Source of the DNA: Candidatus Omnitrophota bacterium
Lineage (GTDB): Bacteria; Omnitrophota; Gorgyraeia; Zapsychrales; Zapsychraceae
Direction of reading: 5' to 3'
Assembly: GCA_029261055.1 (NCBI GenBank)
Contig: JAJDCA010000071.1
Span: 153,778-217,777 of the forward strand
DNA length: 64,000 nucleotides
Positions 4,827 to 59,970 of this stretch are shown piece by piece. The position numbers were made by a program, and so were the translations under genes. Position 1 is the first letter of the stretch. Each line of letters begins with the position of its first letter. The notes below the pieces were generated by a model. It did not search any database, was not told where the DNA came from, and saw only the letters and a list, made by a program, of their open reading frames with translations.

Positions 4827-5978
4827 TTGGAGGAATTTATGGATATTAAAAGGTGTATCAATCTTCGGGCAACCCTTAATAAAAAATCATTATTTTTATT
4901 TGGCCCCAGGCAGACGGGGAAGTCCTGGTTGATCAATCGTTATTTTAAGGATTGTAGAATTTACGATCTTTTGGATAGTGAAACATATCTTTTATTAAAT
5001 CAAAATCCAAAAAGATTAGAACAAGAAATTCAGCCAGAGGATAAGATTGTTGTTATTGATGAAATACAAAAACTTCCATCTCTTCTTGATGAGGTGCATC
5101 GGCTTATTGAACAGAGGGGGCTTCATTTTTTATTGACCGGATCTAGTGCAAGAAAATTACGCCGGGGTGGTGTCAATTTATTGGGGGGGAGGGCGCGGTC
5201 GCGTCATTTACATCCTTTTATTTTTAACGAACTTAATAATCATTTCAATTTATTAAAAGCTCTTAATTATGGTTTGATTCCTTCTATTTATTTTTCTGAT
5301 GCCCCCCAGGAAGATTTAAAAGCATACGCCGGTGATTATTTAAAAGAAGAAATAGCGACGGAAGGGTTAACTCGTAATGTGCCGGCGTTTAGCCGTTTTT
5401 TACAAGTAGCAGCCTTATGCAACGGATTATTAATCAATTATGCCAGTATTTCTAGTGACGCGCAGGTGCCAAGCAGTACGGTTCAGGAGTATTTTCAAAT
5501 TCTACGCGATACCCTTATTGGGTTTGATGTGCCCGCGTGGAAAAAAAGTATAAAGCGTAAGCCTGTGGGTACCTCAAAATTTTATTTTTTTGATGGAGGC
5601 GTTGTTCGATTTTTACAGAATCGATCCCCCTTTGAAGAAAAATCTCCAGAATTTGGAGATGCCTTTGAAACGTACATAGCGCATGAATTAAAATCTTTTA
5701 TTGATTATTCTCTGTCAGGGGAGCTTTGTTACTGGCGCTCTAGATCAGGTTTTGAAGTTGATTTTATTGTTAATGATATGCTGGCGGTGGAGGTAAAAGC
5801 AAAACAAAATATTACACCCAAAGATATGCGTGGTATTAAAGCTTTACAGGAAGAGCATAAATTATCGCATTATGTTATTGTTTCTTTAGAACAGCGGCCT
5901 CGCATTGTAAATAATATTCACATCCTTCCCTGGAAAGATTTTCTTTTTCAATTATGGGATGGGAAATTTAATAAATAG
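4827..5978 (+). CDS. AAA+ superfamily ATPase (AAA_14 + DUF4143 / COG1373 family)
   Basis: Walker A 'GPRQTGKS' and Walker B 'VVIDEIQ'. The C-terminal region is typical of DUF4143. This is the first of three diverged paralogs in the window. Confidence 0.7.
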   Translation: MEEFMDIKRCINLRATLNKKSLFLFGPRQTGKSWLINRYFKDCRIYDLLDSETYLLLNQNPKRLEQEIQPEDKIVVIDEIQKLPSLLDEVHRLIEQRGLHFLLTGSSARKLRRGGVNLLGGRARSRHLHPFIFNELNNHFNLLKALNYGLIPSIYFSDAPQEDLKAYAGDYLKEEIATEGLTRNVPAFSRFLQVAALCNGLLINYASISSDAQVPSSTVQEYFQILRDTLIGFDVPAWKKSIKRKPVGTSKFYFFDGGVVRFLQNRSPFEEKSPEFGDAFETYIAHELKSFIDYSLSGELCYWRSRSGFEVDFIVNDMLAVEVKAKQNITPKDMRGIKALQEEHKLSHYVIVSLEQRPRIVNNIHILPWKDFLFQLWDGKFNK

Positions 5979-6114: not shown

Positions 6115-6166
6115 TTGACATGTGCTTAAAATATGTTATCTTTTCAGTGTATTAGAGAAGAAAACG
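6115..6166 (+). promoter_or_regulatory. Putative sigma70-type promoter (TTGACA-N16-TATCTT) plus a ~38-nt conserved block shared with the 52163..52213 region
   Basis: TTGACA at 6115-6120, 16-nt spacer, TATCTT at 6137-6142. The block aaaatatgttatcttt[t/c]cagt[g/a]tatta..aagaaaacg is nearly identical upstream of the paralogous giant gene at 52327. Confidence 0.55.
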
Positions 6167-6204
6167 ATATCTTGAGTCATTTCGTATAAAAACCTGCCAA
6201 TAAT

Positions 6205-6239
6205 CCTGCCTGTCGGTAGACAGGCTCGCCACGGATTGG
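6205..6239 (+). promoter_or_regulatory. Conserved leader element: hairpin (gcctgtc-ggta-gacaggc) followed by invariant CTCGCCACGGATTGG
   Basis: The same architecture occurs at 52244..52273. The hairpin there has a different stem sequence but the same structure, with the identical 15-nt motif after it. Confidence 0.5.
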
Positions 6240-6267
6240 CCTATTTTTAACTCAATAGAGGAAAAAT

Positions 6268-9200
6268 ATGTTTATTTTACGCCAAAAACAACGGGTGCGT
6301 GTAGCGTACAGAGTGTTATCAGCCTTTATTATGGCCGTATTTTCCGTAACAACAATTATCCCAAGTGGTTATGCACAGAGTGTATCTTTGCCAACGGCAG
6401 GCACGGTTTTAAACCTTCCTGTGCCCGGCACGATGGTGGGCATAACCGAAGGATTTACCCCGGCTCTGATTAAAGGTATTACCATTTATCCGGACAATCC
6501 TTTGATGTTTGATTTTATTGTGGATAGCGGGCATTCTGAGATGACTGGAGAGGCCCTTAAAGATGAGGCGTCTGATATGATTAAATATTTCCTGGCGGCC
6601 TTAACCATTCCGGAAAAGGATTTATGGGTCAACTTGAGCCCGTATGAGGCGGACCGTATTATTCCTGATGGTTTGGGCGACACCTCTATGGGTCGCGATA
6701 TGTTGTCGCAAGATTATATGCTTAAACAACTTACGTCTTCGATGATGTATCCGGAGGATGAGCTGGGTGGTGAATTTTGGGAGCGTGTGTATGATAAGGC
6801 TTATGAAAAATTCGGCAACACCGACATTCCAATGAATACTTTTAACAAAATTTGGATTGTGCCACAGGCGGCTGAAGTCTATGAGCGTGAAAAAAGTGCT
6901 TTTGTAGTGGGCAGCCGTTTAAAGGTTATGTTGGAAGAAGACTATGTCGCTTTGCAGAAAAATTTAGGGGTGGAACAATATGGATTAGATGCGATGCCCA
7001 AGAGCGAGGCCAAGGTTGTCAGTGGTGTCACCTCAGAGGTAGTGCGTGAAGTCTTGATTCCTGAAATCGAACGCGAAATAAACGAAGGCGCCAACTTTGC
7101 CAAACTCCGCCAGATCTACCATGCCATGATTTTGTCTACGTGGTACAAAAAGAGGCTGCAGGAAAGTTTATTGGGACAGGTGTATGTAGATCAAAATAAA
7201 ACCATGGGCGTCGATACTCAGGATAAGCAGATCAACCAAAAAATTTACGATCAATATGTCGAATCTTTTAAAAAAGGCGTGTACAACTACATTAAAGAAG
7301 ATTACAACCCCGCCACCCAACAAATCACCCCCCGCAAATATTTCTCCGGCGGAATGAATCAATCCATGTTGAGCCGTATTTTTAAATTTATGGATAGGCC
7401 GACACGATTTGAGGTAGCACCGACAGGATTTGAGATATCCTACCAAACAAGTCTGATCGATGCCAATAAAGACAATGCGAGTATTGCCGTGCGTGTGAAA
7501 GAAGAGGTTGAATCGCAGGTTGATTTTGTGTTGATGAACTCAGAAAAAGAAATCGTTTCGGATGAGTCGATGCTTCAAGATTTTGATCCGTTTTTTTTGA
7601 TGAGTCTTATAACAAAATGGTCGCCTAAATATGAGGATGATTTAAAGGTATTCCACTTTATAAGGCATTTATATCTTGCCTGGATAGCGACGAAGGGGGA
7701 TCTTGCTAAGGCAACAATGACTTTAACGGAGAAGTCTTCATTTAAAAAATTTATTCAGGATAAAACTTTAGTCAATAAGGCTATTGAAGGGTCGCTTTAT
7801 GTGAATAATCCGAATATTAAAGGTTTGCTAAAAAACATCCGCACAGATATCACCAAGGCTGAAAATAAAATAAAGGCGGTAAGAAGAGAATTTGTTGGGG
7901 TGAATGAAAAAAGTACACAGGAAACGCAGGAGGCGGGGATGATCACGCTTCAGAATGTTCTTTTGAAAAATAAGAGTGCTGGTAAGACAGGGGAGGAGGA
8001 TGTTTTTGGAATAAGCATTAGTCGATTTCCAAGTGATCAATACGGTGAATTCGAGGCAAATTTTATCCAGAAAGATGGAAATACTGTGCAAATAATTGCA
8101 TGGCAAGAAAATAAAATTATTGACGTTGATTACAATCAGACAATGGAAAATTTTTACAAGGATCATAATTTATTTTATCGCAATAATAAAAAAGGGATTC
8201 CAACGGTAATTATTGAGGAAAAGTACGGAAAAAATAGAAAAATTTATAAAATTACACGTGGTGAAGGGCAAGAAGTAATGAAACAAAAGGATTTCAAAGA
8301 GCTTGTTTGGAATGATACGGCGATGGTTACAGATAAAGAAAGTCAGGCCGCTAAGAAGATATTGTTTGATTTTAGAGAAAGTGAAGCTAATAGGATGAAT
8401 ACTGCAAGAATACGAAGAGTCCATGTTCTTATGAATGCAATGAGAATTCGGTATGCCATAGGAAAAGATGAAGGAAGCAGTGTTGTTGGCATATTTTATG
8501 ATATGGAAAAAGCATTCTTGAAAAAGCAATCCAACTTCAAGCACTCAGATGCAATATTATTTTATCATACTGTTTTAGCGTTGGATCTACCAGACGAAGA
8601 ATACGTAACGCTAAAAAATAGTGTGATGCAAAGCTTGTTCCGTTTGGCAGAGAGAATAATGAAGGAAGAGGGGATCGTCATTAGTGTAAAGGAGATTTTA
8701 GCCCAGAAGGAAAAAATAAAAATGGCTATGATAAACGTTTTGCCGCATATGAAGCATTTTAAACATATGGAGTGGGGTGTCTATGATTACATTGATCGGG
8801 TTTTAAGCAGTTCAGATAAGAAATGGGATGAAGTATATTATTACAAGTACAAGGTGGCGATAAGTTTAGGGGAGAGCTATTCCAAGTTAGGGCATTCATT
8901 TGAAGGTGTTTTTGCGAAGATTAAGGGGAAGATAGCTTCTTTTCGGGCCAATGATTATGTAGATGTGTTTAGACAGTTGAATAAAAAATATACCGCGGAT
9001 GCATTGTATCAGGGGTTACCCTACACGGTAGATGGGGTGCGGATTTTTAAATCGAGATTAAAACAATACCGTCAGGATTTCAGATCGGCCATGGATACGC
9101 ACTATAAAAATATTTTTAAACTCGCACTTAAAGGTGAGCTGGAAGACAGTCCTTATGATATTTATGAAAATGAAGGGTCATCATTGCAAAATCAAGCAGG

Positions 9201-11340
9201 TGCGCAACTTTCTACAGAAGAATTAATTTATCTTAATGGCATTGCGGCAGGAAATGAATCGTTCTGGTTAGAAGCGTGGAGAATGCGCAATGCTTTTCAA
9301 AACAGTCCGGATGAGGTCGAAAGACTAATAATCCTTGAGGATGTTTTTAATGGCAAATCAATAGAGTTGGGGCTTTTAAAAATAGAAAAGGACGAAAAAA
9401 AGAAGGATAAGGAAAAAATAGCAATACTTGAAGTTGAAATGAAATCGATCGAAGAAACAATTGACCTTCTTTTAGAGAAAAAGCAAGAGATTTTAAGTGA
9501 AGTAGAGTATGTTGCGGAGGATGAGAATGAACAGAATCTAGCCATGTTAGTAGGGCTGAATCAGAAGATTGATCAATGGCTGCAGGGGCTTGAAAAAGAT
9601 GAAGACGCGGCGATGGCAGCGTTTAAATCATTGCTCCTTAAGATTAAACAGAAAATAACGGGGATATCTAATCGGAAAAAAATTGTTGTCGAGGATATTC
9701 CAGGTCTTGAGACGCTTGGGGTATCGATGGAAAATTTCCTAAATGCAGAAGGTATCCATACACCCAAAGATGCGGCTAAGTTGGGTAAGAGCATCAATGA
9801 GACGATAAACAGAGCGATTAAAGCATTTAGAAAGCGAGGTTCAGTGGATTTTACAGAAGATAATCTTTTCGCACTTCTTCTTAAGAAATATGATGAAAAT
9901 GTGCCCATTAATCGGGACGATTTAATGAAAGATTTAGAAAAATTTTCCCTAGGTGTGTATTCGAATTCTGTTGAGTTTGGCCTTATCAAATTACAATTAC
10001 AAATGAAAGTGTTTCTAAATCGGAACGTCGAGTGGTTTTTGAGTCCTATGCATCACTTTCCTCAAGCGGTGGCCAGGGCCAGTCAAGATAATAATATTGG
10101 GAGAACTATTGAAATGTTGGGCGAAATTTCGACGTATTTAGATGATGGAGTAACCTTTGCTGGAAACGCGGCGAGTAGGATATTCAAGAAGTATAAATAC
10201 ATAGATGAAAATAATTATGAAGAGATGGCCGATGAGTATGCACAAGTAGTGCGTTCTCTTCAAGATCACATCAAACAAATTGCAGATGAAGATCATGAGG
10301 AATTTCAAGAGATGATAGATATTTTAAATGCCAGTATTCAGCAACAGCTTGAAGATGTCTTGGGGGGTATTGCAGAGGCTAAAGTTCCTTATGTAGAAGA
10401 AAGAGGAGGTAAACGTTTTTCCATAGGTATTCCTTATGATTTGAGGGATAGCTTTGCTAAAAATGTAGTGAGTATCTATGAACGCCATACTGACTGGATG
10501 AACATTCTTAAAGTATCTTTAAAAGGGACCTATCGTGATTTGAAAATTAAAATAGATGAAGTGCGGGAGATGGAGAAAAAGTTCATAAATGATTATTTTA
10601 ATGTCAGGCCAAATAGCAATCTTTTGAAGGAAGAAGAAAAAGAAATATATATCCCAAGAGTAGAAGAGTTTTATGAGAAGTTAGCTGAATTTGAAGGAGT
10701 AAAAATGCCATCTAAGGAGAAGCGTTGGATTACGGGGTGGATTTTAAAATTAGAGGGCATATATAAAGGATTAGGAGGGGCAGACAAGGTTATTGATCGC
10801 GTGAATGTAAAGACAATAGGCGACGGCATGGACACCTGGGATGATTTGCCGGATTTTGATCAAATAACGGCAGAATTAGATGACTCCATGATGGCCACGA
10901 CTCTGGCAGAATTGCTAGAGAAATTGAAAATGTCAAAAGATGAAGTGGATAAAAAGGCTGTTACAAAACAAATATTTAGACTGGTGGACGAAGATTTAGA
11001 CGAGCCTTTAAAAGGTAGATTTCTTAAACAATTCACTGAATTAAATGGTGAAACGGATAAAGCGAGCATAACTCCCATTGGTGGTATTAATTTTGATTCG
11101 GCGATGTTGAATTTGCAGATTAAGCGCGATGGGGCTGGGGTGCCCTTGCCTTTGATTGAGCAGGATATGGATTTGGGTATGCGTGTCCAAGGATTTTTGC
11201 CGATTATTATTAATGCTACTCCAGTAAGCCTGCCGCAGTTGCTTGGTTTTTCCGATACTGTACCGCAAGAGGCCGATTCTTCGACTATGAGTCTGTCTTA
11301 TCACATCCTCACCCGCGACCCGCAGGATATTATCATTTAA
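6268..11340 (+). CDS. Giant secreted/surface protein of unknown function (1690 aa). N-terminal conserved domain, long K/E-rich coiled-coil centre, conserved C-terminal ~65-aa module
   Basis: N-terminal signal/anchor (positively charged, then hydrophobic, AQS). Residues ~40-375 are about 70% identical to the 52327 paralog. The central region is strongly lysine/glutamate-rich with heptad-like repeats. The C-terminal block GGINFDSAMLNLQIKRDGAGVPLP…LPIIINATPVSLPQLLGF is shared with the paralog. I recognise no known domain. Confidence 0.75.
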   Translation: MFILRQKQRVRVAYRVLSAFIMAVFSVTTIIPSGYAQSVSLPTAGTVLNLPVPGTMVGITEGFTPALIKGITIYPDNPLMFDFIVDSGHSEMTGEALKDEASDMIKYFLAALTIPEKDLWVNLSPYEADRIIPDGLGDTSMGRDMLSQDYMLKQLTSSMMYPEDELGGEFWERVYDKAYEKFGNTDIPMNTFNKIWIVPQAAEVYEREKSAFVVGSRLKVMLEEDYVALQKNLGVEQYGLDAMPKSEAKVVSGVTSEVVREVLIPEIEREINEGANFAKLRQIYHAMILSTWYKKRLQESLLGQVYVDQNKTMGVDTQDKQINQKIYDQYVESFKKGVYNYIKEDYNPATQQITPRKYFSGGMNQSMLSRIFKFMDRPTRFEVAPTGFEISYQTSLIDANKDNASIAVRVKEEVESQVDFVLMNSEKEIVSDESMLQDFDPFFLMSLITKWSPKYEDDLKVFHFIRHLYLAWIATKGDLAKATMTLTEKSSFKKFIQDKTLVNKAIEGSLYVNNPNIKGLLKNIRTDITKAENKIKAVRREFVGVNEKSTQETQEAGMITLQNVLLKNKSAGKTGEEDVFGISISRFPSDQYGEFEANFIQKDGNTVQIIAWQENKIIDVDYNQTMENFYKDHNLFYRNNKKGIPTVIIEEKYGKNRKIYKITRGEGQEVMKQKDFKELVWNDTAMVTDKESQAAKKILFDFRESEANRMNTARIRRVHVLMNAMRIRYAIGKDEGSSVVGIFYDMEKAFLKKQSNFKHSDAILFYHTVLALDLPDEEYVTLKNSVMQSLFRLAERIMKEEGIVISVKEILAQKEKIKMAMINVLPHMKHFKHMEWGVYDYIDRVLSSSDKKWDEVYYYKYKVAISLGESYSKLGHSFEGVFAKIKGKIASFRANDYVDVFRQLNKKYTADALYQGLPYTVDGVRIFKSRLKQYRQDFRSAMDTHYKNIFKLALKGELEDSPYDIYENEGSSLQNQAGAQLSTEELIYLNGIAAGNESFWLEAWRMRNAFQNSPDEVERLIILEDVFNGKSIELGLLKIEKDEKKKDKEKIAILEVEMKSIEETIDLLLEKKQEILSEVEYVAEDENEQNLAMLVGLNQKIDQWLQGLEKDEDAAMAAFKSLLLKIKQKITGISNRKKIVVEDIPGLETLGVSMENFLNAEGIHTPKDAAKLGKSINETINRAIKAFRKRGSVDFTEDNLFALLLKKYDENVPINRDDLMKDLEKFSLGVYSNSVEFGLIKLQLQMKVFLNRNVEWFLSPMHHFPQAVARASQDNNIGRTIEMLGEISTYLDDGVTFAGNAASRIFKKYKYIDENNYEEMADEYAQVVRSLQDHIKQIADEDHEEFQEMIDILNASIQQQLEDVLGGIAEAKVPYVEERGGKRFSIGIPYDLRDSFAKNVVSIYERHTDWMNILKVSLKGTYRDLKIKIDEVREMEKKFINDYFNVRPNSNLLKEEEKEIYIPRVEEFYEKLAEFEGVKMPSKEKRWITGWILKLEGIYKGLGGADKVIDRVNVKTIGDGMDTWDDLPDFDQITAELDDSMMATTLAELLEKLKMSKDEVDKKAVTKQIFRLVDEDLDEPLKGRFLKQFTELNGETDKASITPIGGINFDSAMLNLQIKRDGAGVPLPLIEQDMDLGMRVQGFLPIIINATPVSLPQLLGFSDTVPQEADSSTMSLSYHILTRDPQDIII

Positions 11341-11408: not shown

Positions 11409-12737
11409 ATGAAAAGATTCATAGAAGAAGAATTAATAAAGTGGAAAGATGATTCAGATCGAAAGCCGCTTATTCTTTCAGGGGCTCGGCAAGTTGGCAA
11501 GTCTTATGTCATAGAACGCAACTTTTCTTCCAATTTTGATCAGGTTTTAAGTATCAACTTTGAAAAACAGCCTGAGTTTAAGGATTGTTTTGAGTCAGAC
11601 TTATCACCGGGAAAAATTATTCGTAAAATTGAGGCTTTAAGCCAGAAAAGAGTAGATATTGGTCGAACCCTAGTTTTTTTGGATGAGATTCAAATTTGCC
11701 CAAAAGCCATAACGGCTTTGCGGTATTTTTATGAAGAACTTCCTGCCTTACACCTTATCGCCGCGGGATCGCTGCTTGAGTTTACAATGGAAAGTATTTC
11801 TGTGCCTGTGGGGAGGGTAACTTACCGTCATTTAACTCCGTTATCATTTGAAGAATTTCTTTATAATTCCGGGAATGAAATTTTATTAGAAGAAATATCA
11901 CGGCATAATTTTGATGCCCCGTTTGATAAGGTGGTGGCTCAAAAAGCGGAAGTTCTTCTTAAAGAATATATGGCGATTGGAGGGATGCCGCAGGTTGTAG
12001 ATCGGTATATTCAGAATCAAGATTATTTAAAATGTCAGGAAATTTTGTCAGATTTGCTGGAAACTTATACTAACGATTTCCCTAAATATGGTCGAAGGGA
12101 TGCGGATTTGAAATATATTGATTTAGTTTTCGCGAGAGCTGCGCATCTCGTAGGAAAGCAGTTTAAATATGTTCATATTACGCGGGATATTCAATCAAAA
12201 TACATCAAACAAGGCGTTGACCTTCTTGTTAAGGCTGGCGTTTTGTCCTTGATTTACAAAACATATGGTTCTCCTCTGGGGGCTAATTATAATCCGCATC
12301 GTTTTAAGCTGCTATTTCTTGACATTGGTCTCATGCAAAGGGCATGTGGTTTGAACATATCTAGATGGGTAAGTGATGGGCATGATTTGATTCACGCAGG
12401 GGTGATCGCTGAACAGTTTGTAGGGCAGGAAATTGCAGCACATGCACATTTTAAAAAAGGAAGACTGTATTATTGGGAGAGAGACAAAAGGGGGAGTTCT
12501 GCGGAACTTGATTATCTTGTGGAAATGGCTGGGCGCATTCTACCTGTTGAGGTTAAATCAGGAACCATCGCCAGGTTAAAGAGTTTGCAGAATTTTCTGA
12601 AAGCGCATCCTGATATTCCTGAAGGAATTAAAGTATCTCTCGACAATTCTGGAAAGAAACAAAATATTCGTTCAATCCCGCTGTACGCCTTTGGGAGCTG
12701 GTTAAAACGGCAGGATTATACTAAATCTATTAAATAA
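11409..12737 (+). CDS. AAA+ superfamily ATPase (AAA_14 + DUF4143 / COG1373 family)
   Basis: Walker A 'GARQVGKS' and Walker B 'LVFLDEIQ'. Second paralog, immediately downstream of the giant gene. Confidence 0.7.
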   Translation: MKRFIEEELIKWKDDSDRKPLILSGARQVGKSYVIERNFSSNFDQVLSINFEKQPEFKDCFESDLSPGKIIRKIEALSQKRVDIGRTLVFLDEIQICPKAITALRYFYEELPALHLIAAGSLLEFTMESISVPVGRVTYRHLTPLSFEEFLYNSGNEILLEEISRHNFDAPFDKVVAQKAEVLLKEYMAIGGMPQVVDRYIQNQDYLKCQEILSDLLETYTNDFPKYGRRDADLKYIDLVFARAAHLVGKQFKYVHITRDIQSKYIKQGVDLLVKAGVLSLIYKTYGSPLGANYNPHRFKLLFLDIGLMQRACGLNISRWVSDGHDLIHAGVIAEQFVGQEIAAHAHFKKGRLYYWERDKRGSSAELDYLVEMAGRILPVEVKSGTIARLKSLQNFLKAHPDIPEGIKVSLDNSGKKQNIRSIPLYAFGSWLKRQDYTKSIK

Positions 12738-14316: not shown

Positions 14317-14424
14317 GAAGTAAGAAGCAAAGACGCAAGAAGCAGAAACCTCATAAGGTTGGTTAATTTTTTTCGCTGCATCTTGGTTCTATACTTTTTT
14401 ACTTCTCTTAAGAGAGGAGCGTAT

Positions 14425-15504
14425 ATGAAAGTTAAAGAACTTTTTCAAATTATGGTTGAAAGAGAAGCTTCGGATATGTATTTACGGACAAAGGCTTATC
14501 CTCGTGCACGGATTAATGGGCAAGTAGAAGTGGTTGGGACGGAAGCTCTTTCCAAGGAAGAGATGTCTGCTGTAACAAATTTTCTTTTGGAAAAAGAACA
14601 ACTACGAAGACAATTTCTGAAAGAGATGGATATTGATTTTATCCATGTGGAAGAGGGCGTGGGGCGTTTTCGAGTTAATATTTTTATGCAACGAGGTTCC
14701 CCTGCTATTGTTGCCAGGCACGTACATTCACATTCCAAAACATTTGAAGAATTAAATTTACCTGCCGAATTATTTCAGAAATTTTGTGAAGAATCCAAGG
14801 GGATGTTTATTTGTTCTGGACCGGCAGGAAATGGAAAGTCAACGACCATTGCCACAATGATTGAGCATATTAATACAACCAAATCTAAACATATCATAAC
14901 GGTTGAGGATCCTATTGAATTTTTATTTACAGATAAAAAAAGTATTATTAACCAAAGGGAATTAGGTTTAGATGTTCCTTCGTATCTTTCTGCCTTAAAG
15001 CATGTTACTCAGCAGAGCCCGGATATTGTTTACATTGGTAATATTAGAGATGAAGAAACCATGCGCGCAGCTATTACAGCTACAGAATTGGGTACTTTTG
15101 TGATGACTACATTTCATACGGTCAATGCCGTTCAGGCGATCATACGTATCGTTAATTTCTTTCCACCGTATTTACATGATGAAATAAGGATGCAGCTTTC
15201 AATAATACTGAAAGGAACGATTTCTTTGCGGTTACTTCCACGTAAAGATGGGAAGGGTCGGGTTCCTGCGTTTGAAACTATGGTCGTTACTCCAACCATC
15301 GCGCGTTTAATCAGAGAGGGTCGTATTCGTGAAATTCAGAACTACATTGATGAAGGGGCTATGTTTGGTATGCAATCGTTTAAGAAATCTTTAGTCTCTT
15401 TAGTGAAGCGGGATTTGGTTAATGAAAATGCAGCGCGTGAGTATGCGGATAGTAAAGATGATTTTAATCTTGAATTAAAAGGGATTAAACGAACGTCGGA
15501 ATAA
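14425..15504 (+). CDS. pilT: Type IV pilus retraction ATPase PilT/PilU family
   Basis: Start moved to the ATG at 14425, preceded by AGAGGAG. Walker A 'GPAGNGKSTT' and overall PilT-like sequence (DMYL…, His/Asp boxes). Confidence 0.8.
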   Translation: MKVKELFQIMVEREASDMYLRTKAYPRARINGQVEVVGTEALSKEEMSAVTNFLLEKEQLRRQFLKEMDIDFIHVEEGVGRFRVNIFMQRGSPAIVARHVHSHSKTFEELNLPAELFQKFCEESKGMFICSGPAGNGKSTTIATMIEHINTTKSKHIITVEDPIEFLFTDKKSIINQRELGLDVPSYLSALKHVTQQSPDIVYIGNIRDEETMRAAITATELGTFVMTTFHTVNAVQAIIRIVNFFPPYLHDEIRMQLSIILKGTISLRLLPRKDGKGRVPAFETMVVTPTIARLIREGRIREIQNYIDEGAMFGMQSFKKSLVSLVKRDLVNENAAREYADSKDDFNLELKGIKRTSE

Positions 15505-31731: not shown

Positions 31732-31865
31732 TTTATTTAGGAATTTCGATGCTTTAACGAAATTCCAAACGGGTTTAATACCCTTGATTATCCTTCTTGA
31801 AAGATTTTTTATAAGATGATATACTTCTGCCTTAACTCATTGAAAGAAAATACGTTTTGCTTCTT

Positions 31866-33368
31866 ATGAAAAATTTCTTAATAAAAATATGGGTGTTTCT
31901 TGTAGTTATCTTTCTTGGGCTTCCTTTTGCCGCACAAGGACAGGGGACGGCTACGGATTCTTATACGCATCATGGTCGCGTTATGTTGGAGTGGGGAAAT
32001 GTGACTGAGGCTGTTGATGATTTTAGCAAGGCTATTTTGCGTGATCCTCATAATAGAGAAGCCCAAGGGCAATTGATGGCCTTGGCTTCGCAGGGTAGCT
32101 TAACGCCTCAACAAAGGATCAATTTGGTCCTTTTGAAAGACTTAGTGAAATATAATCAGAGCCTTGAGGCTAAAGTAGATTATTATGAAACTAAAAATAG
32201 GCTGCTTAGAGAAATTCTCATCCAGAAAGGATATCCTGTACCTTTTAGTGATGAAGAAATTATACAGATTAAGTTTAATGGAACATCAGCTGAACCATTA
32301 GAGCAAGTGAATGCAGCGTTAAGGTTTGAAAAACAACAATTATCAGATAAAATTGTATTTTTGAAAAAAGAGTATGATCGTTTAAGAAATGTGCGCAGTG
32401 AGAACTTCTCAAATGTGCGGCGTGTTGTTAAAACGCAACCATCGGAAAGGATAACGCATTTTTATAACCCGTATTCTGAAGATTTTCATAATAGAACAAA
32501 AGGTTCAACAGAATCTTTGAATGTTCCATCAGAGCAGATAATTCGAAATCAAGACATGTATGCGGCTCAATTTAAACCTGTGGAAGTCCCAACGGTTATA
32601 TCGGCATCACGAGAAGATGCCCTTATGTTGAAAAACGAATTAGCCCTTGTACTTGGAAAATTGAATAATTTGGAAAGAAATATTACACAGAAAGATCAAA
32701 GAATTGAAGAATTAAATAAACAAATCGTTAATTATGCCTTGGAGCTTTCTGAAGTTAAAATGATGTTAACACAAAAGATTGAAAAAATTTCGTCATTTAA
32801 TACGGCATTGATTGATATACAGTCGCGATTTGAACTTGGGCAGAGAATAATCCAAGAAAAAGATGGAACAATTCAATCCGTTCAAGCTATGCTTCAAGAG
32901 GTCAGGACACAGTTATTTTCACGGGAAAATGAAATAAAGACTATCCTAACGTCTAAGGATGAAAAATTGGTTGAGCTGAACGGCATATTGCAAGTTTACA
33001 AGGAAAAGCTCGGTGATGTTCACCAAGAAGTAAAAGAAAAAGGGGCAAGTGTGTCTACTTTAGAAGATCAATTAACGCTTGTGCAGGTTAAAATGTTTGA
33101 GAAAAATAAAATGCTTCGTAAAACACAAGAACAATTTTTGAAATTAGAAGGACAGTTAAAGGATATTCAAAATAATGTGTTTGAATTAAAGGGGTATTCA
33201 AAAGGCAATAGTAAAATTCTTGAATTTGATGAAGATGTTTCAGGTTTGCAAGGTGAGTTAAAAAATATTCACCAATTTTTATTAAAGCAATTAAGCAGTT
33301 TTGAGGATTCTAACAGTAATTTTGCTGTTGAGGATTTGCGTGACGTCAGGGAAATGCTTGATAAGTAA
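31866..33368 (+). CDS. Secreted coiled-coil protein with an N-terminal TPR-like segment, hypothetical
   Basis: Signal peptide (MKNFLIKIWVFLVVIFLGLPFAAQG), then long heptad-rich, Q/E/K-rich sequence. Confidence 0.5.
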   Translation: MKNFLIKIWVFLVVIFLGLPFAAQGQGTATDSYTHHGRVMLEWGNVTEAVDDFSKAILRDPHNREAQGQLMALASQGSLTPQQRINLVLLKDLVKYNQSLEAKVDYYETKNRLLREILIQKGYPVPFSDEEIIQIKFNGTSAEPLEQVNAALRFEKQQLSDKIVFLKKEYDRLRNVRSENFSNVRRVVKTQPSERITHFYNPYSEDFHNRTKGSTESLNVPSEQIIRNQDMYAAQFKPVEVPTVISASREDALMLKNELALVLGKLNNLERNITQKDQRIEELNKQIVNYALELSEVKMMLTQKIEKISSFNTALIDIQSRFELGQRIIQEKDGTIQSVQAMLQEVRTQLFSRENEIKTILTSKDEKLVELNGILQVYKEKLGDVHQEVKEKGASVSTLEDQLTLVQVKMFEKNKMLRKTQEQFLKLEGQLKDIQNNVFELKGYSKGNSKILEFDEDVSGLQGELKNIHQFLLKQLSSFEDSNSNFAVEDLRDVREMLDK

Positions 33369-37717: not shown

Positions 37718-38569
37718 ATGGAAATGAGATGGGAATTTAAAAGATTAAATAAAGAGAAAATTATGCGTTATTTTAGAACTAACAAACAAATTGTTGTTTT
37801 ATTGACAGTATGCCACTTTTTGTTAATAAGTGGGGTAGGAGGGGTTTATGCTTTTGATTTGAGCCTGGAAGGTAAGAAGTTGTATGAAGAGAAAACAGGA
37901 AAGAATTGGCAGGATGCGACTATTTATGAACAGGAAACTTTTTTGCAATATTTTCGAACTAGAAAACTTAATTCTACAAGAAATGTTAATAGTCAAAGAC
38001 AGGCGAAGGATGTAAACGAAGAAACGCAGGAGGTCAGTCAAGAAGTTCTAAAACGTACTCTTAAAATTCGTGGTGAATTTAAGGAAAAGACAGGTAAGGA
38101 GTGGGGTCAGGCGAATGAACGTGAGCAAGAAATATTTCTTAAGCATTTTCGTATTATTGAATTAAAGGAAAAACAAAAGAAGGTAACAAAAAAATATGCT
38201 CCGGATCCTAATGTTACATTAGAAATTCGTCGTAATTTTGAAAGAGGTCGAAATAAAAAATGGGAAGAGGCTACTGAGGAAGAGCAGAATAAATTTTTTA
38301 AAGATTATGAAAAGGCAAAAAAAATAGAGCTACAAAAAGAGTCCCGAAGAATACTTCAAGTAAAAAGGTCTGGGCAAATATCTGAAAGAAATAAAAAGAA
38401 TGCAAAAAGAAGTAAAAAGCGAGCCAAGATGCGGGAAGAAAGAGAAAGGATGCTTGAGCATCGCGCTAAGGAAAAGAAACGTCAGGATATACGGAGATGG
38501 ATCGTACAGACAAAAAGGAATTTTGATCGTAAACGCCAACAAATGCAGAGGAAGCGAAAGAAAAGGTGA
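37718..38569 (+). CDS. Secreted lysine/arginine-rich tandem-repeat protein, hypothetical
   Basis: Three ~45-aa repeats with core K(T/R)GK.W..A.E.EQE.FLK.F, a highly basic C-terminus (KRSKKRAKMREERERM…RKRKKR), and a signal-like segment after M37763. Confidence 0.5.
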   Translation: MEMRWEFKRLNKEKIMRYFRTNKQIVVLLTVCHFLLISGVGGVYAFDLSLEGKKLYEEKTGKNWQDATIYEQETFLQYFRTRKLNSTRNVNSQRQAKDVNEETQEVSQEVLKRTLKIRGEFKEKTGKEWGQANEREQEIFLKHFRIIELKEKQKKVTKKYAPDPNVTLEIRRNFERGRNKKWEEATEEEQNKFFKDYEKAKKIELQKESRRILQVKRSGQISERNKKNAKRSKKRAKMREERERMLEHRAKEKKRQDIRRWIVQTKRNFDRKRQQMQRKRKKR

Positions 38570-50592: not shown

Positions 50593-51762
50593 TTACAAAT
50601 CATTCAAGAGGTGGATATCAGAAGGGTCTTTTATGATAAGTTTTTTGGTGGCTTTTATGCGGTTGAAAAGGTTTAATTGCTTTTTAGTAAGTTCTCGATA
50701 ATATTTTGATTCAATTAAGGTTTTATTTTGTGTATAGAAATCAATTTCTATGCCGTCCTCGTATATGTAAGATGGGCTTGCCTGACGGATTTTTAAGAAA
50801 ATATAGTTTTCAAAAAGGCTCCCTTTGTCTCGAAACCCTGTAAACAAAGTGCGTATGCCAAGGTCCGGGGCGTAGCCTTTTTTAGGGGATAGAAGTGTTT
50901 CATTAGTTTTACCATGGCGTGGGATAAGGTAAATTAAGTAGGTTTCGGCAAACATCGAAAGATAGCGTTTAGCTGTATCGGGCGCAATAGAGAGTATTTT
51001 AGCCATTTTATTGATACTTATTTGTTTGCCGGCACGTTCCATAAGGAGCATGAAATAGTCTTTTATCATTTGAGGATTCTTAATGTTATGATAGGCAATA
51101 ATATCTTTATAAATAATGTCATCGACCAGGGTTTTTAAATATTCACGATCTGGGTGGAGAACATATTCAGGGATACCACCGGTTTTCATATAATCTTCAA
51201 AATACGGTTCTTTAAGATAGTTTTCTTTTTGTTTGATGGTGATGTTACGAAATTGGCAAAATTCTTCAAAATCAAGTGGGGCGATTTCTAAAATACGTTC
51301 TCTTCCGGTTAAAAGTGCTTTTTTATCTTTGAGTAAAGAAGTGCTTGAGGAAGACGTATAAATTTTTACGTTTTGATTGTCATAAAGGTTTTTTAGTTGT
51401 AAATGTGGATTTTTTTTGTAGGTAATTTCATCAAGAAAAAGATAGATTTTTTTGTTAAGAGGCAGTTTGAAAATTTTGCGATATTCTGAAATGATATCAA
51501 GGATGGATTTATTTATTAAGGTATAATCATCCAGGCTCACATAAAAAATGTGTTTTGGGTTAGCTCCTTTATGAATAAGCCGTTGGATAAAAAGTTTCAA
51601 TAGAGTCGTTTTTCCAACCCTTCGTAAGCCGGTAAGGATAACGATTGATTTTGTGTTGAGAAGATTTTCCATGGAAGAAAGTATGCGCGGACGATCTTTA
51701 ATTGCTTCTAGTGAAATGGGCTCTTCCCACCATGGATTGTATTGGTAGAGTGTTTCTTTCAT
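50593..51762 (-). CDS. AAA+ superfamily ATPase (AAA_14 + DUF4143 / COG1373 family)
   Basis: Walker A 'GLRRVGKTT' and Walker B 'YLFLDEIT'. Start trimmed to MKETLYQYNPWWEE by analogy with the paralogs. Third paralog, divergent to the second giant gene. Confidence 0.65.
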   Translation of the reverse strand: MKETLYQYNPWWEEPISLEAIKDRPRILSSMENLLNTKSIVILTGLRRVGKTTLLKLFIQRLIHKGANPKHIFYVSLDDYTLINKSILDIISEYRKIFKLPLNKKIYLFLDEITYKKNPHLQLKNLYDNQNVKIYTSSSSTSLLKDKKALLTGRERILEIAPLDFEEFCQFRNITIKQKENYLKEPYFEDYMKTGGIPEYVLHPDREYLKTLVDDIIYKDIIAYHNIKNPQMIKDYFMLLMERAGKQISINKMAKILSIAPDTAKRYLSMFAETYLIYLIPRHGKTNETLLSPKKGYAPDLGIRTLFTGFRDKGSLFENYIFLKIRQASPSYIYEDGIEIDFYTQNKTLIESKYYRELTKKQLNLFNRIKATKKLIIKDPSDIHLLNDL

Positions 51763-52162
51763 GCCTAAAGTATACGTTATAATCGTATATTTATCAAGGA
51801 AATTATACGATAATGATAAAATAATAATGTAATTGTTAAATACCATGAAATAAGAAATTGACAATTTTGAATATCATGTCCTTAAGATATGTAAGTATTT
51901 AGCATTCTGAGTTGTCGAAGAGCGTTAAAAGCATGAAATTATTTCTAGCAGGACATTGAAAGCCCTGCGCATTCCATGCTGACACCGGGGAATTTTCTGA
52001 GTGTTTTCTTAAAAAAATAAGTATTTTAAAAGAAATGTATCATGTTTTAAATCAATAGGTTATGCAATCTACAAATTTCTTCATTTTTATAATATATTAT
52101 AACATTATTTATTTCAATATGTTATGAATCATCTGGCTTCATTTCTCTCCACTTGACACTCG

Positions 52163-52213
52163 TCCAAAATATGTTATCTTTCCAGTATATTAATAAGAAA
52201 ACGTTTTATTCCA
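52163..52213 (+). promoter_or_regulatory. Putative sigma70-type promoter (TTGACA-N16-TATCTT) plus conserved block, paralogous to 6115..6166
   Basis: TTGACA 52163-52168, TATCTT 52185-52190. The block aaaatatgttatctttccagtatattaataagaaaacg is nearly identical to the one upstream of the first giant gene. Confidence 0.55.
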
Positions 52214-52243
52214 CATAATTACACCAATAATTCCTACAGCAGG

Positions 52244-52273
52244 TAGGTCTCGCCACGGATTGGTTAAATTTAT
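52244..52273 (+). promoter_or_regulatory. Conserved leader element: hairpin (cctac-agcag-gtagg) followed by invariant CTCGCCACGGATTGG
   Basis: The structure is conserved relative to 6205..6239 with a different stem sequence (compensatory changes). The 15-nt motif is identical. Confidence 0.5.
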
Positions 52274-52326
52274 AAAAATTAATTAGACATTGAACTACAA
52301 TGTTTTTTCATAATCCGGAGGAAATA

Positions 52327-55300
52327 ATGAACATTTACATAAAAAAACAACGTTTTTGTCTGTTTTACAGGGCTTTATCCGCCTTTATTGCCGTGGCATT
52401 CCTAACCACCAGCATTGTGCCGCAAGGGTTTGGGCTGAGCGCAGTCGAAGCCTATGCGCAGAGTATGTCTGTGCCAGCACCAATAGTGTTAAATTTGCCT
52501 GTACCGGGTACAATGGTCGGCATGACCGAAGTATTTACACCGGCAATGGTCAAGGGCATCACTATTCATCCGGATAATCCGCTTTTATTTGATTTTCTCA
52601 TCAATAAAGGGGATACCCATCTTAAAGGCGACGAATTAAAGACGGAAGCCAATAAATTGATTAAATATTTTTTGGCGGGCCTAACCGTGCCGGAGAAAGA
52701 AATGTGGGTTAACCTCAGTCCGTACGAAGCAGATAGAATTATCCCTGAAGGTTTTGGCGATACCGAAATGGGCCGGGATTTGCTTGCGCAAGATTACATT
52801 TTAAAACAGCTCACCTCATCATTGATGTATCCAGAAGATGAATTAGGTGAGGCCTTTTGGCAACGTGTTTATGAAAAATCTTATGAAAAATTTGGTCATA
52901 CAGATATTCCGATGAACACATTTAACAAAATTTGGATCGTGCCGGAAAACGCATCTGTGTATGAACACGAAGAAACTTCGACCGTGTATTTAGTGGATAG
53001 TCATTTGAAGGTGATGCTTGAAGAAGATTATGTTGCTGCGCAACATAATAGTGACGCGTCGCTCGTGGCTCGTGACTCGAAAAAACATTCGGATATCAAG
53101 CGCGCCACGCGTCACGCCATGCCTGCCGGCAGGCAGGAGCGACTAGCGACGAACCTTATCCGAGAGATTCTTATCCCCGAAATCGAACGCGAAGTCAACC
53201 AAGGCAAAACGTTCGCCAATCTGCGCCAGATTTATCATTCCGTTATTCTGGCCACGTGGTACAAACGAAAATTTGCTGTAGGGAACGAGCACCTGCCTGC
53301 CGGTAGGCAAGGTGCCCAATCCTTATTAGGACACGTGTATGTAGATCAAAACAAAACCAAAGGTGTAGATACGCAGGATAAAGACATTAACCAAAAGATT
53401 TATAATCAGTACGTCGAATCTTTCAAGAAAGGCGTTTACGATTACATCAAAGAAGATTATGATCCCGCGACTCGACAGATCATCCCGCGGAAATATTTCT
53501 CAGGAGGAGCGGAGCTTTTTCTGGCCAAAATAAATCACGCTATGCTCACTCCAGAAAGGCGTGTAGAGATAACAAGCGAGGGTAAGAATACAGATCGTGT
53601 TGTAGTGGAATTGAATGAAATCGGATTAAAAGGTACTGACTATGCACAAGTAGTTACAGATTCAGGAGAATATTTACAGCGGGCAGGTGATATTAAAAGT
53701 GCGGAAAATGTAGATGCAGTAATTAGTCCTATTGTCGATAATGCGATGCAAACATTTCCAGGCTTAATGAATAAATTTTCAAAGGATGGGTATGTTTTAC
53801 ATGCATTGGAACGAGGAGCTGATTTAACGCCTTGGGATGGAGAGGTTGTTATGGAATTGCTTGGTCAAATGACTGAAGGGCGTGAGTATGCGAATGGAGT
53901 TATTTATGATTCGGGTCATTATAGAAGCAGAAGTTTTACTTATTTTAACATGCCATTTTTGAGTGAATTGAGTGAAGATATTATTAGGTTTTCCGTTGAT
54001 TCATCTCATAAAAATCCAATCGAAGTAGTAGATACATCTGAAAATTTTGAGTTTTTTCTTGGTGAAAATAAAGAAACACAAAAAATTGAATTTTTAGCTT
54101 GGGAATGGAAACGACGCGATGTGAGCTATGAAGAACATAACATTTCCTATAAAGGTGAAAATGGGAAATATGATGTTCTTAAAATAAGCCCTAAGCAATA
54201 TGGGAATGTTTTGAGTAAAGGATTTGGAGTTGAAGAAAAACCTTCTAGTAATCAGATTGCCTATTTAGGGGCTACACAACTAAAAGGGAAAGAGTTTAAG
54301 GAATGGAATTTTTCTAATATTGAAGAAACTTCTCAGGGAAAGTGGGGGCATGGCTCTTCATATAGTATGGATTATCCTGAGTTTAAGAAAGACTTTATTC
54401 ATTACACGCAATATAGAAATGATGATGTAGATTTAATGACACACGTTTATTCAATTCCAGTAATTATGAAAGATAATCTTTCTTATAATATGGGTAAAAA
54501 TAAAAATAGCGAAGGTTTTGAAATTCGTATTGGCAGAAATAAAAATAGAGAAATTGAGTTTATGTTGTTAACAGCTCCACAAAAAATTATTTTAAGGTAT
54601 AAAAATAAGCTAGGAATGCCGAAAAGTAAAGTGATAACGAAAGCTGAACGTGATCAAATTTTAAAAGATCCGACAATAATTAATACAATAATATTTAATA
54701 GTAAGAAAATGTCCAAGGAATGGGTTGTTGATGAGGCAAAGGAAAAAGAATTTTCAGAAAACACTAAAACACGTATTCTAAATAATCAGGTAATAGTAGA
54801 TGAGCATACTAAGGTATTAAAAAATAAGAGAGTTGTGGAGATTAAAGAAAATGGAAAGAAGCCCTCCAACTTAATGCCGGAGAATAAAAAAGAACATGAA
54901 AAAGTTATGCGTATTAATAAAATAATAGAAGAGATGAAGTCGGTTGTTAAGAACCATTCTTTTCGTGACCTTTATTTTGGTCCAATTCTAGGACGAAAAA
55001 ATATTAAATCTTTTCGTGATTATTTAATAGCAGGGAATATACAAGACATTCAGGCGATTGTTTCTGGTATGAATCCACAGAAGGCAAAAGATAAGGGAGA
55101 AAAAAAGATTTTTAGAAAATATTATGAAAGTCCAAAATTTTCTAATTTAGCAACACAAATCAAATCAAAAGCAAAAGCTTTAATAGATAAGCTTCCTCAA
55201 ATCAAGGGAAAAAATCTAGAAGCCGAGATAAATTCTTTTCGTGAAGATGTTTTAAATGAAATTGAAAATCTTGATGCGGCGATGATTGGAAATGGTCAAG

Positions 55301-56473: not shown

Positions 56474-57151
56474 ATGGCGCATAAAATTCTAATTATCGAA
56501 GATGACCGGGATATTGCGGAGATGATTGAGTATAATTTGCAGCGGGAGGGGTATGTGGTTCTGAAGGTGTTTGATGGTCAGGAGGCTTTGCCGGCGGTTA
56601 CGCGGCATCGGCCGGATTTGGTTATTTTGGATATTATGTTGCCTTCGGTGGATGGGTTGGATATCTGTAAGGCTTTGCGTAGAGATGAAACTACCATTGA
56701 TCTTCCGATTATTATGTTAACTGCCAAATCGCAAGAGTCGGATAAGGTGATTGGTTTGGAGCTCGGGGCCGACGATTATGTGACCAAGCCTTTTAGTCCG
56801 CGCGAATTGATGGCTAGGGTTAAGGCGGTGCTGCGACGGACGAAAGTAGATAAATCTTCGTCCAAAACTTCTTTCGGCCCTGTAATCATTGATCATAAAC
56901 GTCACAGGGTTGACGTGGATGGTCAGGAGGTTATGTTGACGGCTACGGAATTTAAGCTATTAGATTTCTTGGTCCAAAAGACAGGGGCGGTTGTTTCACG
57001 TGATCAGATTCTTGATGCGGTTTTTGGGTACAGCTCCGAAGTGTATGACCGCACGGTCGACGCCCATATTAAATCCCTACGTAAGAAACTGGGACCTGCC
57101 AAAGATTACATTGAAACCATCCGGGGTTTTGGATATCGATTCAAAGAGTAA
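56474..57151 (+). CDS. phoB: OmpR/PhoB-family response regulator
   Basis: REC domain (ILIIEDDRDIAEM…LVILDIMLPSVDG…) plus winged-helix output (…RGFGYRF). Adjacent to a PhoR-like kinase, a Na/Pi cotransporter and a PhoU-like gene. Confidence 0.75.
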   Translation: MAHKILIIEDDRDIAEMIEYNLQREGYVVLKVFDGQEALPAVTRHRPDLVILDIMLPSVDGLDICKALRRDETTIDLPIIMLTAKSQESDKVIGLELGADDYVTKPFSPRELMARVKAVLRRTKVDKSSSKTSFGPVIIDHKRHRVDVDGQEVMLTATEFKLLDFLVQKTGAVVSRDQILDAVFGYSSEVYDRTVDAHIKSLRKKLGPAKDYIETIRGFGYRFKE

Positions 57152-57156
57152 TTTTT

Positions 57157-58584: not shown

Positions 58585-58596
58585 CCTTAATCAGAG

Positions 58597-58750
58597 ACGC
58601 GAAATCGCTTTTAAGTAAAGATTAGCACATTCGGCTCAGAGGAGACCTCGTTCTGCTCGGCCTCCAATTCGCCTAATGCACTAATCTTTACTTTGAGCGA
58701 TTACGACTCAACTCGGTCAATCCGTCTTAATAAGAGGTTATGTATCTTCA
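58597..58750 (+). repeat. Structured repeat element, copy 2
   Basis: Matches 43123..43313, minus that copy's 34-nt sub-hairpin. Lies between the phoR stop and the Na/Pi transporter start. Confidence 0.6.
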
Positions 58751-58822
58751 CCTAATCTTCACATTTCCTTCACAGCAGTTTCACATAAAAACGTATAATC
58801 ATTTAATAGGAGTTCATACGTT

Positions 58823-59950: not shown

Positions 59951-59970
59951 AAATTAAGGAAGGGAAAACT

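Follow-up and report, generated by a model that had tools for sequence, protein, structure and literature searches.

A very large Omnitrophota protein family with constant ends and exchangeable middles, possibly made for carrying payloads out of the cell

Introduction

Omnitrophota are widespread, uncultured and ultra-small bacteria that are thought to live off other cells. Giant proteins named 'Archaeovorins' have been reported from this phylum (West-Roberts et al. 2023, 10.1101/2023.11.21.568195; 10.64898/2026.06.07.730766); they exceed 30,000 amino acids (aa) and carry many transmembrane (TM) helices and SecA-like domains. The passages of these two sources on the giants list HEAT_2, HATPase_c, PPDK_N, phosphoglucomutase, receiver and starch synthase domains, and describe the N-terminal regions as lacking identifiable domains. 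Here we analyse two open reading frames (ORFs), A and B, which lie together on one contig of a Candidatus Omnitrophota assembly (GCA_029261055.1, contig JAJDCA010000071.1, positions 153,778 to 217,777 of the forward strand). The whole 64,000-nt stretch is called the window below, and all coordinates refer to it. A and B are paralogues within a very large, unnamed family that is found almost only in Omnitrophota and in which a constant head and a constant tail enclose a variable middle.

Outside this phylum, proteins of the two-partner secretion (TPS) type offer a parallel. TpsA, CdiA and FhaB have an extended signal peptide, a conserved N-terminal domain of ~250-300 aa that is recognised by a dedicated transporter, and a long variable remainder. 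Short VENN motifs mark exchangeable modules in TPS exoproteins, and FhaB has a conserved C-terminal part. A more distant parallel is the secreted hexokinase of microsporidia, where the parasite equips a glycolytic enzyme with an export signal and passes it to its host.

Results

Two paralogues with common ends and unrelated centres

Comparison of A with B by BLASTP gave an N-terminal match with 248 of 413 identical positions (60%, E 7e-157) and a C-terminal match with 43 of 90 (48%, E 1e-21); beyond both ends, the centres did not align to each other. When each part was searched against the whole window with tblastn, exactly two heads and two tails were recovered, and no second copy of either centre. 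Both ORFs lie where an earlier note, made from the letters of this DNA, had placed them, and its description of a paralogous pair with unrelated centres and a common C-terminal module is borne out. The ~70% N-terminal identity that it gave is reached in ungapped blocks only and drops to the 60% above over all 413 positions. Its choice of the B start was sound: ATG 52327 is the better start because a Shine-Dalgarno (SD)-like GGAGG (52317-52321) lies 5 nt upstream of it and nothing comparable precedes ATG 52300.

The centres appear to differ from what had first been perceived in them. For A, a ~1200-aa K/E-rich coiled coil had been proposed, and this is not supported: a crude heptad scan, which is not a dedicated coiled-coil predictor, marked only ~163 of the 1690 aa (~10%) as heptad-like, and 57 aa in B. 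The A centre contains 23 prolines, its longest run free of proline and glycine is 66 aa, and its K and E content lies only moderately above the window average. Likewise, the B centre is not obviously of low complexity, as had been suggested; the receiver domain recognised there is confirmed by a strong Pfam match (see below).

Head, tail and architecture of the family

The head is an alpha/beta region of ~330 aa with the signature LxLPxPG ... WVNLSPYE ... PRKYFSGG, which is present in both A and B. The two align over the full head with 83 family sequences, and 37 columns of this alignment are invariant. A confident structure model of the head (predicted template modelling score, pTM, 0.77) consists of two beta-hairpins and long helices, with no beta-helix, and comparison with solved structures returned no matching fold. 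Neither head nor tail of A or B has a match in Pfam, in NCBIfam or among PDB sequences. The Pfam and NCBIfam scans of both proteins were inspected down to E<=1; at this level the Pfam lists comprise only DUF7207, Response_reg and CCB1, and both libraries together give response-regulator-type families and three weak unrelated ones. Family searches and structure prediction of both modules thus led to no characterised family or fold, in keeping with the earlier impression that neither holds a known catalytic or adhesin domain.

The tail has a proline-rich core of ~57 aa with about seven prolines and the consensus GGI[ND]L[ND]PALLDLQIKRDGNGVPLPxxxQPxxxMxIxGFLPVIINVTPVxNLPLLLG. A and B both carry its signature, GGI[ND]L[ND]PxxLxLQIKRDGxGxPLP...P[VI]IINxxP...LLG, at the extreme C-terminus. 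The core is followed by a variable acidic stretch, often with a terminal motif such as EE[IV]SxLN; in many lineages the last motifs after this stretch are conserved, for example ...KAREPEEISALN or ...DKYRNKYxxxY.... Since the tail modelled alone (alignment of 53 sequences) shows no secondary structure (predicted local distance difference test, pLDDT, 62; pTM 0.23), we read it as a putative linear recognition or docking element rather than a domain.

A search with the A head returned 1,271 proteins at E<=1e-3, and the named ones are almost all from Candidatus Omnitrophica/Omnitrophota metagenome-assembled genomes (MAGs); many are labelled partial and lie at contig ends. When each GTDB species is represented by one genome, a relative is encoded at 538 places at least; the best 80 of these are spread over ~45 MAGs, single ones of which hold up to five copies or more. 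We examined 79 loci from other genomes, with a locus limit of 10 kb. They hold 106 ORFs with a head, which often stand in tandem in twos or threes; those that are complete span 750-3,260 aa, and eight cross the locus edge at more than 3,690 aa. A hidden Markov model built from the two window tails placed the tail 0-49 aa from the stop codon in 71 of the 77 3'-complete head-bearing ORFs. Moreover, the tail profile matched 4,104 clusters at E<=1e-3, 2,141 of them at E<=1e-10, among 1.84 billion representatives, and among the matches listed the tail was C-terminal in 150 of 150, in proteins of up to 5,808 aa.

Many metagenome proteins carry both modules, including 57 that we fetched; the longest members seen with both head and tail have 5,808 and 5,312 aa. 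Where a tail-bearing protein has 1,000 aa or more, it mostly bears a head as well, and short tail-only entries resemble 3' fragments from short contigs. Five long tail-bearing proteins that start with Met have no head (P0141, P0167, P0187, P0253 and P0256; 1,238-3,338 aa), and these may be 5'-truncated gene calls or genuine headless members. At the other extreme, three members without recognisable cargo (P0032, P0082 and P0107; 549-575 aa) consist of the head, a linker of ~100 aa and the tail. Each protein carries a single head and a single tail.

The earlier proposal of an undescribed family of modular surface or secreted proteins therefore stands for the family, its architecture and its swappable middle, as the 71 of 77 ORFs and the 4,104 clusters show; its word 'secreted' is a prediction, discussed below. 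Neither Pfam and NCBIfam nor the papers searched, among them parts of the literature on Omnitrophota giant proteins, contain a description of the family, so that 'not described' holds for these libraries and these sources. Its phylum-wide extent, its enzyme cargo and its delimited strings of whole proteins go beyond what the earlier note had described.

Short delimiters separate the modules of the middle

Within the middles, a short motif of the form D.[AS]M recurs, with 12 occurrences in A and B (2,955 aa) versus one in 16,771 aa of other window ORFs. In A, such delimiters leave four modules of ~250, 430, 425 and 70 aa between the head and the tail; in B, they sit exactly on both sides of the receiver domain. 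The consensus drawn from 132 sites in relatives reads D-x-A-M-[LVM]-[AGS]. The delimiter type follows the genome and not the protein, with D-x-A-M-[LVM] in our genome and [AST]-S-S-P-[VI] in many other members. None of the delimiters lies inside a mapped Pfam domain in the three relatives with mapped enzymes. Furthermore, homologous modules of 500-700 aa differ in position from member to member, and the BLAST alignments between them stop 0-20 aa away from delimiters.

The codons used at the delimiters are biased: Ala is encoded by GCG in 59% of 124 cases versus 27% elsewhere in the same proteins, and Asp by GAC in 50% versus 28%. The delimiter codons concerned lie in A and B (for example at 7567-7572, 8320-8325 and 9610-9615) and in relatives. 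A DNA-level element, such as a recombination site or an internal start, was considered and rejected, as all four Ala codons, and synonymous codons in general, occur at delimiters and no SD-like sequence lies upstream. Since all synonymous codons are used despite the GCG/GAC bias, we read the delimiters as motifs selected at the level of the peptide. The picture suggested by these sequences is that of complete genes that would have been fused in frame at standard junctions and swapped as units.

The cargo includes whole enzymes and signalling domains

Members carry from one to more than ten unrelated cargo modules, and each module corresponds to an entire protein or domain. In 59 middles that come from other genomes, Pfam scans identified phosphoglucose isomerase (PGI; E 2.7e-198), phosphoglycerate kinase (PGK; 1e-107), enolase, phosphoglucomutase (PGM), UDP-glucose pyrophosphorylase (UDPGP), GH116, pyruvate phosphate dikinase (PPDK) and starch synthase, as well as HEAT repeats, HATPase_c, PP2C, receiver domains and others. 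PROSITE-type active-site motifs are intact in the embedded PGI, PGK, enolase and PGM, and three PPDK domains occur together within one module. In P0159, the embedded PGI shares 52-56% identity with ordinary ~550-aa PGIs that occur free-standing in many phyla, so that no donor can be named.

B carries a cargo module of this signalling type. Its receiver (REC) domain matches Response_reg over aa 1037-1148 (numbering from 52300) with E 9e-16 and 58.5 bits versus a cut-off of 30.2, and on reading the sequence it has the acidic pocket, the phospho-acceptor Asp, the Ser and the Lys (LLVEDDED, LVISDLDMP, IMQSG and ALDKRF). Just upstream of the receiver module, a stretch that ends at the DAAM delimiter (window 55114-55272; B aa 939-991, same numbering) has a weak CheA-like match (PDB 6y1y, E 0.0012) and is possibly an Hpt-type phosphotransfer segment, judging from this match. 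Apart from it, the B centre has no relative among PDB sequences. Searched against the middles of ~100 relatives, the centres of A and B gave no match at E<1e-10.

Some modules open with what appears to be a complete signal peptide of their own directly after the delimiter, e.g. DGAM-LSWRAKGVGIASAALLLMSLVVSAPAQE. Such modules were seen in L019 and L024 (~35-60 aa after the head) and in P0111; it thus seems that proteins which were once secreted have been incorporated, too.

A predicted signal peptide and a near-absence of cysteine

The N-terminus is conserved throughout the family and consists of a K/R-rich n-region, an h-region of ~20 aa (YRxLSxFIAxTFIFSxxIPP) and, in the family alignment, a small-x-Ala/Gln site ~7 residues ahead of the first head motif, LxLPxPG (the slash marks the presumptive cleavage point). 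In A, the K/R-rich n-region and the ~20-aa h-region are followed by G-Y-A/Q. From this pattern we infer a conserved extended signal peptide of the Sec type. At 36-45 aa, it is similar in length to the extended signal peptides known from exported proteins of very large size. In A there is a single hydrophobic segment; B has one more, which coincides with the proline-rich tail core. Among 184 members, 170 (~90%) lack a second TM-like segment; some of those in the other 14 are the native signal peptides of fused modules. A second TM helix after the head, which would return the cargo to the cytoplasm, was considered and dropped, since a second segment is present in these 14 members only.

Cysteine makes up 0.047% of the residues in family middles and 0.059% in heads versus 1.11% in neighbouring ORFs, an approximately 20-fold depletion. 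The centres of A and B contain none, compared with 1.0% for the remaining window. Among 100 proteins above 700 aa in length, 80 have at most two cysteines, and P0159 has none in 2,198 aa despite its full PGI. A Cys-free embedded PGI is not significant alone, because 10 of 117 free-standing PGIs are also without Cys. Proteins that must pass the outer membrane in an unfolded state or that function extracellularly, such as autotransporter passengers, are known to avoid cysteine this strongly.

A common promoter and leader, and a motif upstream of relatives

A and B have in common a promoter-like block and a predicted 5' leader element. The promoter-like blocks are near-identical, and the leaders fold alike, with a common outer stem and an inner hairpin that differs in sequence. 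The 15-mer CTCGCCACGGATTGG occurs at 6225-6239 (A) and 52249-52263 (B) only in the window, against an expected 0.02 occurrences; an Rfam scan of the window returned only two tRNAs. Of 103 family genes, 15, including A and B, have the core GCCACGG (often CGCCACGGA) in the 220 nt upstream of them, versus one of 540 control ORFs (Poisson p ~2e-11). The loci that bear it are L007, L013, L021, L025, L031, L032, L041, L042, L049, L054, L056, L066 and L073, and the core may represent a family-specific regulatory motif conserved across genomes.

Genomic neighbourhood

The window is an ordinary chromosomal stretch which encodes MurJ, UvrC, RF2, SecA, Lnt, a lipid A acyltransferase, BamD, LptE and LptF/G, as well as an H+-PPase, HtrA, AmtB, MutY, sulfate assimilation genes and a Pho-type two-component system. 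Since BamD, LptE, LptF/G, Lnt and SecA are encoded here, the organism is diderm. Directly downstream of B (56474-60639, forward strand), genes for an OmpR-type response regulator, a histidine kinase, a Na/Pi cotransporter and PhoU form a phosphate-type regulatory cluster. Three paralogous AAA_14/DUF4143 ATPase genes (4827-5978, forward; 11409-12737, forward; 50593-51864, reverse) flank A on both sides and lie just upstream of B; a similar gene follows a family member in L008, and such an association is not seen across the loci in general. At 3 kb downstream of A there is a lone T2SSE-type (PilT/PilB-like) secretion ATPase gene (14359-15504, forward), and its surroundings hold no further genes for pili or type II secretion. 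Two further ORFs on the forward strand are without a Pfam match at E<=1e-5, one of 503 aa (31857-33368), directly upstream of the HtrA-type protease gene, and one of 283 aa (37718-38569). The features of A and B are compiled in Table 1.

Table 1. Features of the two genes and their upstream regions (window coordinates)
Gene	Feature	Coordinates	Strand	Description
A	Promoter-like site	6115-6142	+	TTGACA, 16-nt spacer, TATCTT; TG directly before TATCTT
A	Predicted 5' leader element	6196-6240	+	Outer stem CCAAU/AUUGG, inner hairpin GCCUGUC/GACAGGC, conserved CUCGCCACGG
A	ORF	6268-11340	+	1690 aa; family member, four cargo modules of unknown type
A	Predicted extended signal peptide	6268-6375	+	aa 1-36; sequence reading and family-wide pattern, single hydrophobic segment
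A	Conserved head	6376-7353	+	aa 37-362, LNLPVPG to PRKYFSGG
A	Delimiter DESM	7561-7572	+	aa 432-435
A	Delimiter DTAM	8314-8325	+	aa 683-686
A	Delimiter DAAM	9604-9615	+	aa 1113-1116
A	Delimiter DDSM	10879-10890	+	aa 1538-1541
A	Tail core	11080-11250	+	aa 1605-1661, GGINFDSAMLNLQIKRDG...LPQLLGF
A	Acidic C-terminal extension	11251-11337	+	29 aa, ends ...DPQDIII
B	Promoter-like site	52153-52180	+	TTGACA, 16-nt spacer, TATCTT; block near-identical to that of A
B	Predicted 5' leader element	52223-52264	+	Outer stem CCAAU/AUUGG, inner hairpin CCUAC/GUAGG, conserved CUCGCCACGG
B	ORF	52327-56097	+	1256 aa from ATG 52327, frame open from 52300; family member
B	Predicted extended signal peptide	52327-52458	+	Ends A-Y-A/Q; sequence reading and family pattern
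B	Conserved head	52459-53508	+	Ends PRKYFSGG; two lineage-specific insertions relative to A
B	Delimiter DNAM	53737-53748	+	
B	Delimiter DAAM	55273-55284	+	
B	Delimiter DKAM	55381-55392	+	Met is the would-be native start of the receiver module, M-EKKTILLVEDD
B	Receiver (REC) cargo module	55408-55743	+	Pfam Response_reg
B	Delimiter DSAM	55777-55788	+	
B	Tail core	55825-55992	+	GGINLDPAMLDLQIKRDG...IPMLLGF
B	C-terminal extension	55993-56094	+	34 aa, ends ...PEEEVFL

Discussion

We give about even credence to the reading that the proteins of the A/B family are exported payload carriers whose head and tail would engage a common machinery. That they are secreted we infer from the signal peptide pattern, the scarcity of further TM segments and the depletion of cysteine. 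The proteins would be exported through Sec and cleaved at xYA/Q, and they would transit without disulfides; we propose that they stay disulfide-free, as they contain almost no cysteine. Constant head and tail would engage one common genome-encoded machinery, which would carry, anchor or assemble the variable payload beyond the inner membrane, with the cell surface or a host or prey cell as the likely destination. The delimiters would be handling or cleavage sites and also the borders for module exchange.

Several observations weigh against this proposal. The predicted signal peptide is read from a sequence pattern. The centre of A has no Pfam, NCBIfam or PDB-sequence relative. Some genomes have no obvious delimiter motif. 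No partner translocon or protease stands out next to the family: when 888 ORFs of the 79 loci plus the window were clustered, with clusters left unannotated, no neighbour cluster occurred in more than 8 of the 79 loci, and any partner machinery would therefore be encoded elsewhere. Finally, much of the cargo of relatives (PGK, PPDK, kinases, REC, UDPGP) needs ATP, UTP or phospho-donors, and such modules would be difficult to square with a place in the periplasm or at the surface, except where they reach the cytoplasm of another cell. The need for ATP and phospho-donors therefore points either to delivery into another cell or to a membrane-tethered string in the cytoplasm.

The second of these options, in which the N-terminal helix would be an uncleaved anchor and the modules would be lined up in the cytoplasm as a metabolon-like string, is unlikely in our estimate. 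It would readily accommodate the typical cytoplasmic, nucleotide-dependent enzymes of the relatives with their intact motifs, and likewise the B receiver, which keeps its acidic pocket, phospho-acceptor Asp, Ser and Lys. The same conflict is noted for Omnitrophota giant proteins in a passage of a 2026 preprint (10.64898/2026.06.07.730766). However, a K/R-rich n-region followed by a helix and a small-x-Ala/Gln site predicts an N-in/C-out orientation or cleavage, a second TM-like segment that could bring the cargo back is confined to 14 of 184 members, and a 20-fold depletion of cysteine has no obvious cytoplasmic reason.

A self-assembling surface coat is partly compatible with an exported payload carrier; taken as an explanation of its own, it seems to us quite unlikely. 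Here the tail would dock into the head in cis or in trans, and head-to-tail chains or rings would display the modules in a cellulosome-like manner. The occurrence of exactly one head and one tail per protein, the existence of members with nothing but these two, a tail that resembles a binding peptide and not a domain, and the very strong conservation of both ends across paralogues while the middles vary freely all fit such an assembly, and Omnitrophota are reported to possess a protein coat. On the other hand, ATP-dependent cargo would be idle on the surface, and a static coat needs no conserved delimiters.

We consider it very improbable that A and B are ordinary giant adhesins of a known secretion type (trimeric autotransporter, TpsA, type I secretion system (T1SS) RTX protein or type IX secretion system (T9SS) cargo), with the A centre as a coiled-coil stalk. 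Their large size, an extended signal peptide like that of type V substrates, a low cysteine content of the kind that is also typical of autotransporter passengers, and the coiled coil perceived in the earlier note would all agree with this idea. The defining families, however, are absent from the Pfam and NCBIfam matches of A and B at E<=1. In the Pfam matches at this level there is no YadA-like C-terminal membrane anchor of type Vc, which has four beta strands per chain, and the tail model is strandless; Pfam and NCBIfam contain no match to a TPS-type (haemagglutination activity) domain, and the head is not a beta-helix; nor do they contain a T9SS C-terminal sorting domain, and the tail is not an autonomous fold. 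An Omp85-type TpsB transporter gene is missing from the Pfam annotations of ~40 window ORFs, although such a gene could lie at a distance. The Pfam lists of A and B hold no RTX family, and a Sec-type signal peptide is predicted; a LapA-like T1SS adhesin has RTX nonapeptide repeats ahead of a C-terminal signal and no Sec signal peptide. PEP-CTERM/VPLPA-CTERM-like signals, in which a short motif precedes a TM helix and a basic cluster at the C-terminal end, do not appear in the NCBIfam lists at E<=1; the tail has no TM helix, and its extension is acidic and not basic. Moreover, the tail is proline-rich, usually with the acidic extension after it, and is predicted to be without beta strands, only ~10% of A scores as heptad-like in the crude scan, and relatives carry whole enzymes instead of adhesive repeats.

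That the pair is an artefact of assembly or duplication, which the earlier note had named as a possible refutation, or a chance similarity, is an a-priori possibility in any metagenome-derived contig to which we give practically no weight, because the copies are 60% identical in protein, not near-identical in DNA, and have different middles, which excludes an assembly duplication, because the two matches have E-values of 7e-157 and 1e-21, and because the architecture recurs in hundreds of independent assemblies.

The described systems that the family most resembles in its workings, by analogy, are type V two-partner substrates and T9SS cargo, and it fails the defining domain tests of both. TpsA proteins are alike in outline, with an extended signal peptide, a conserved N-terminal domain, a variable remainder and motifs at module borders; in contrast, the A/B head is alpha/beta and the cargo consists of whole enzymes, where TpsA-type proteins carry toxins. 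T9SS cargo likewise has a Sec signal peptide in front, a conserved element at the very C-terminus and any cargo in between, but lacks a conserved head of 330 aa, and the A/B tail is not a beta-sandwich in the model. Viral or eukaryotic-style polyproteins and polymorphic-toxin cassettes resemble the family in having complete units in one frame, short conserved junction motifs and exchange as units; unlike these, A and B have no identified protease domain, and no toxin/immunity pairs were seen. The secreted hexokinase of microsporidia is an analogy only, being a single eukaryotic enzyme without head, tail or delimiters.

The closest biological relatives of the A/B family are probably the giant Omnitrophota proteins, compared here by description only. 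Both occur in the same phylum and, as far as the passages on the giants go, both combine signal peptides with cytoplasm-type domains and have several cargo domains in common. However, A and B are only 1.3-1.7 kaa long, have one hydrophobic segment and contain no SecA domain in the Pfam scans. The passages on the giants (10.1101/2023.11.21.568195; 10.64898/2026.06.07.730766) make no mention of the head, the C-terminal tail, the delimiters or the cysteine depletion. A speculative extension, which we regard as doubtful, would be a payload system of the whole phylum: Cys-free enzymes and signalling proteins, strung between head and tail, would be exported, cut or handled at the delimiters and put to work outside the producer, most plausibly in or against a host or prey, where they would rewire sugar metabolism and signalling. 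In this case, the family would be the standard-size version of the Omnitrophota giants.

How Omnitrophota act on their partners is an open question, and the family gives a concrete handle on it. The head, the tail, the delimiters and the near-absence of cysteine are searchable marks across thousands of genes with exchangeable payloads, and in this genome the common promoter and leader are a further mark. If the proteins are exported, they would represent a new bacterial way to package and deliver whole enzymes and would bear on the puzzle of metabolic domains behind the signal peptides of giant proteins. If they are not, we would be dealing with a novel type of multi-enzyme string tethered to the membrane.

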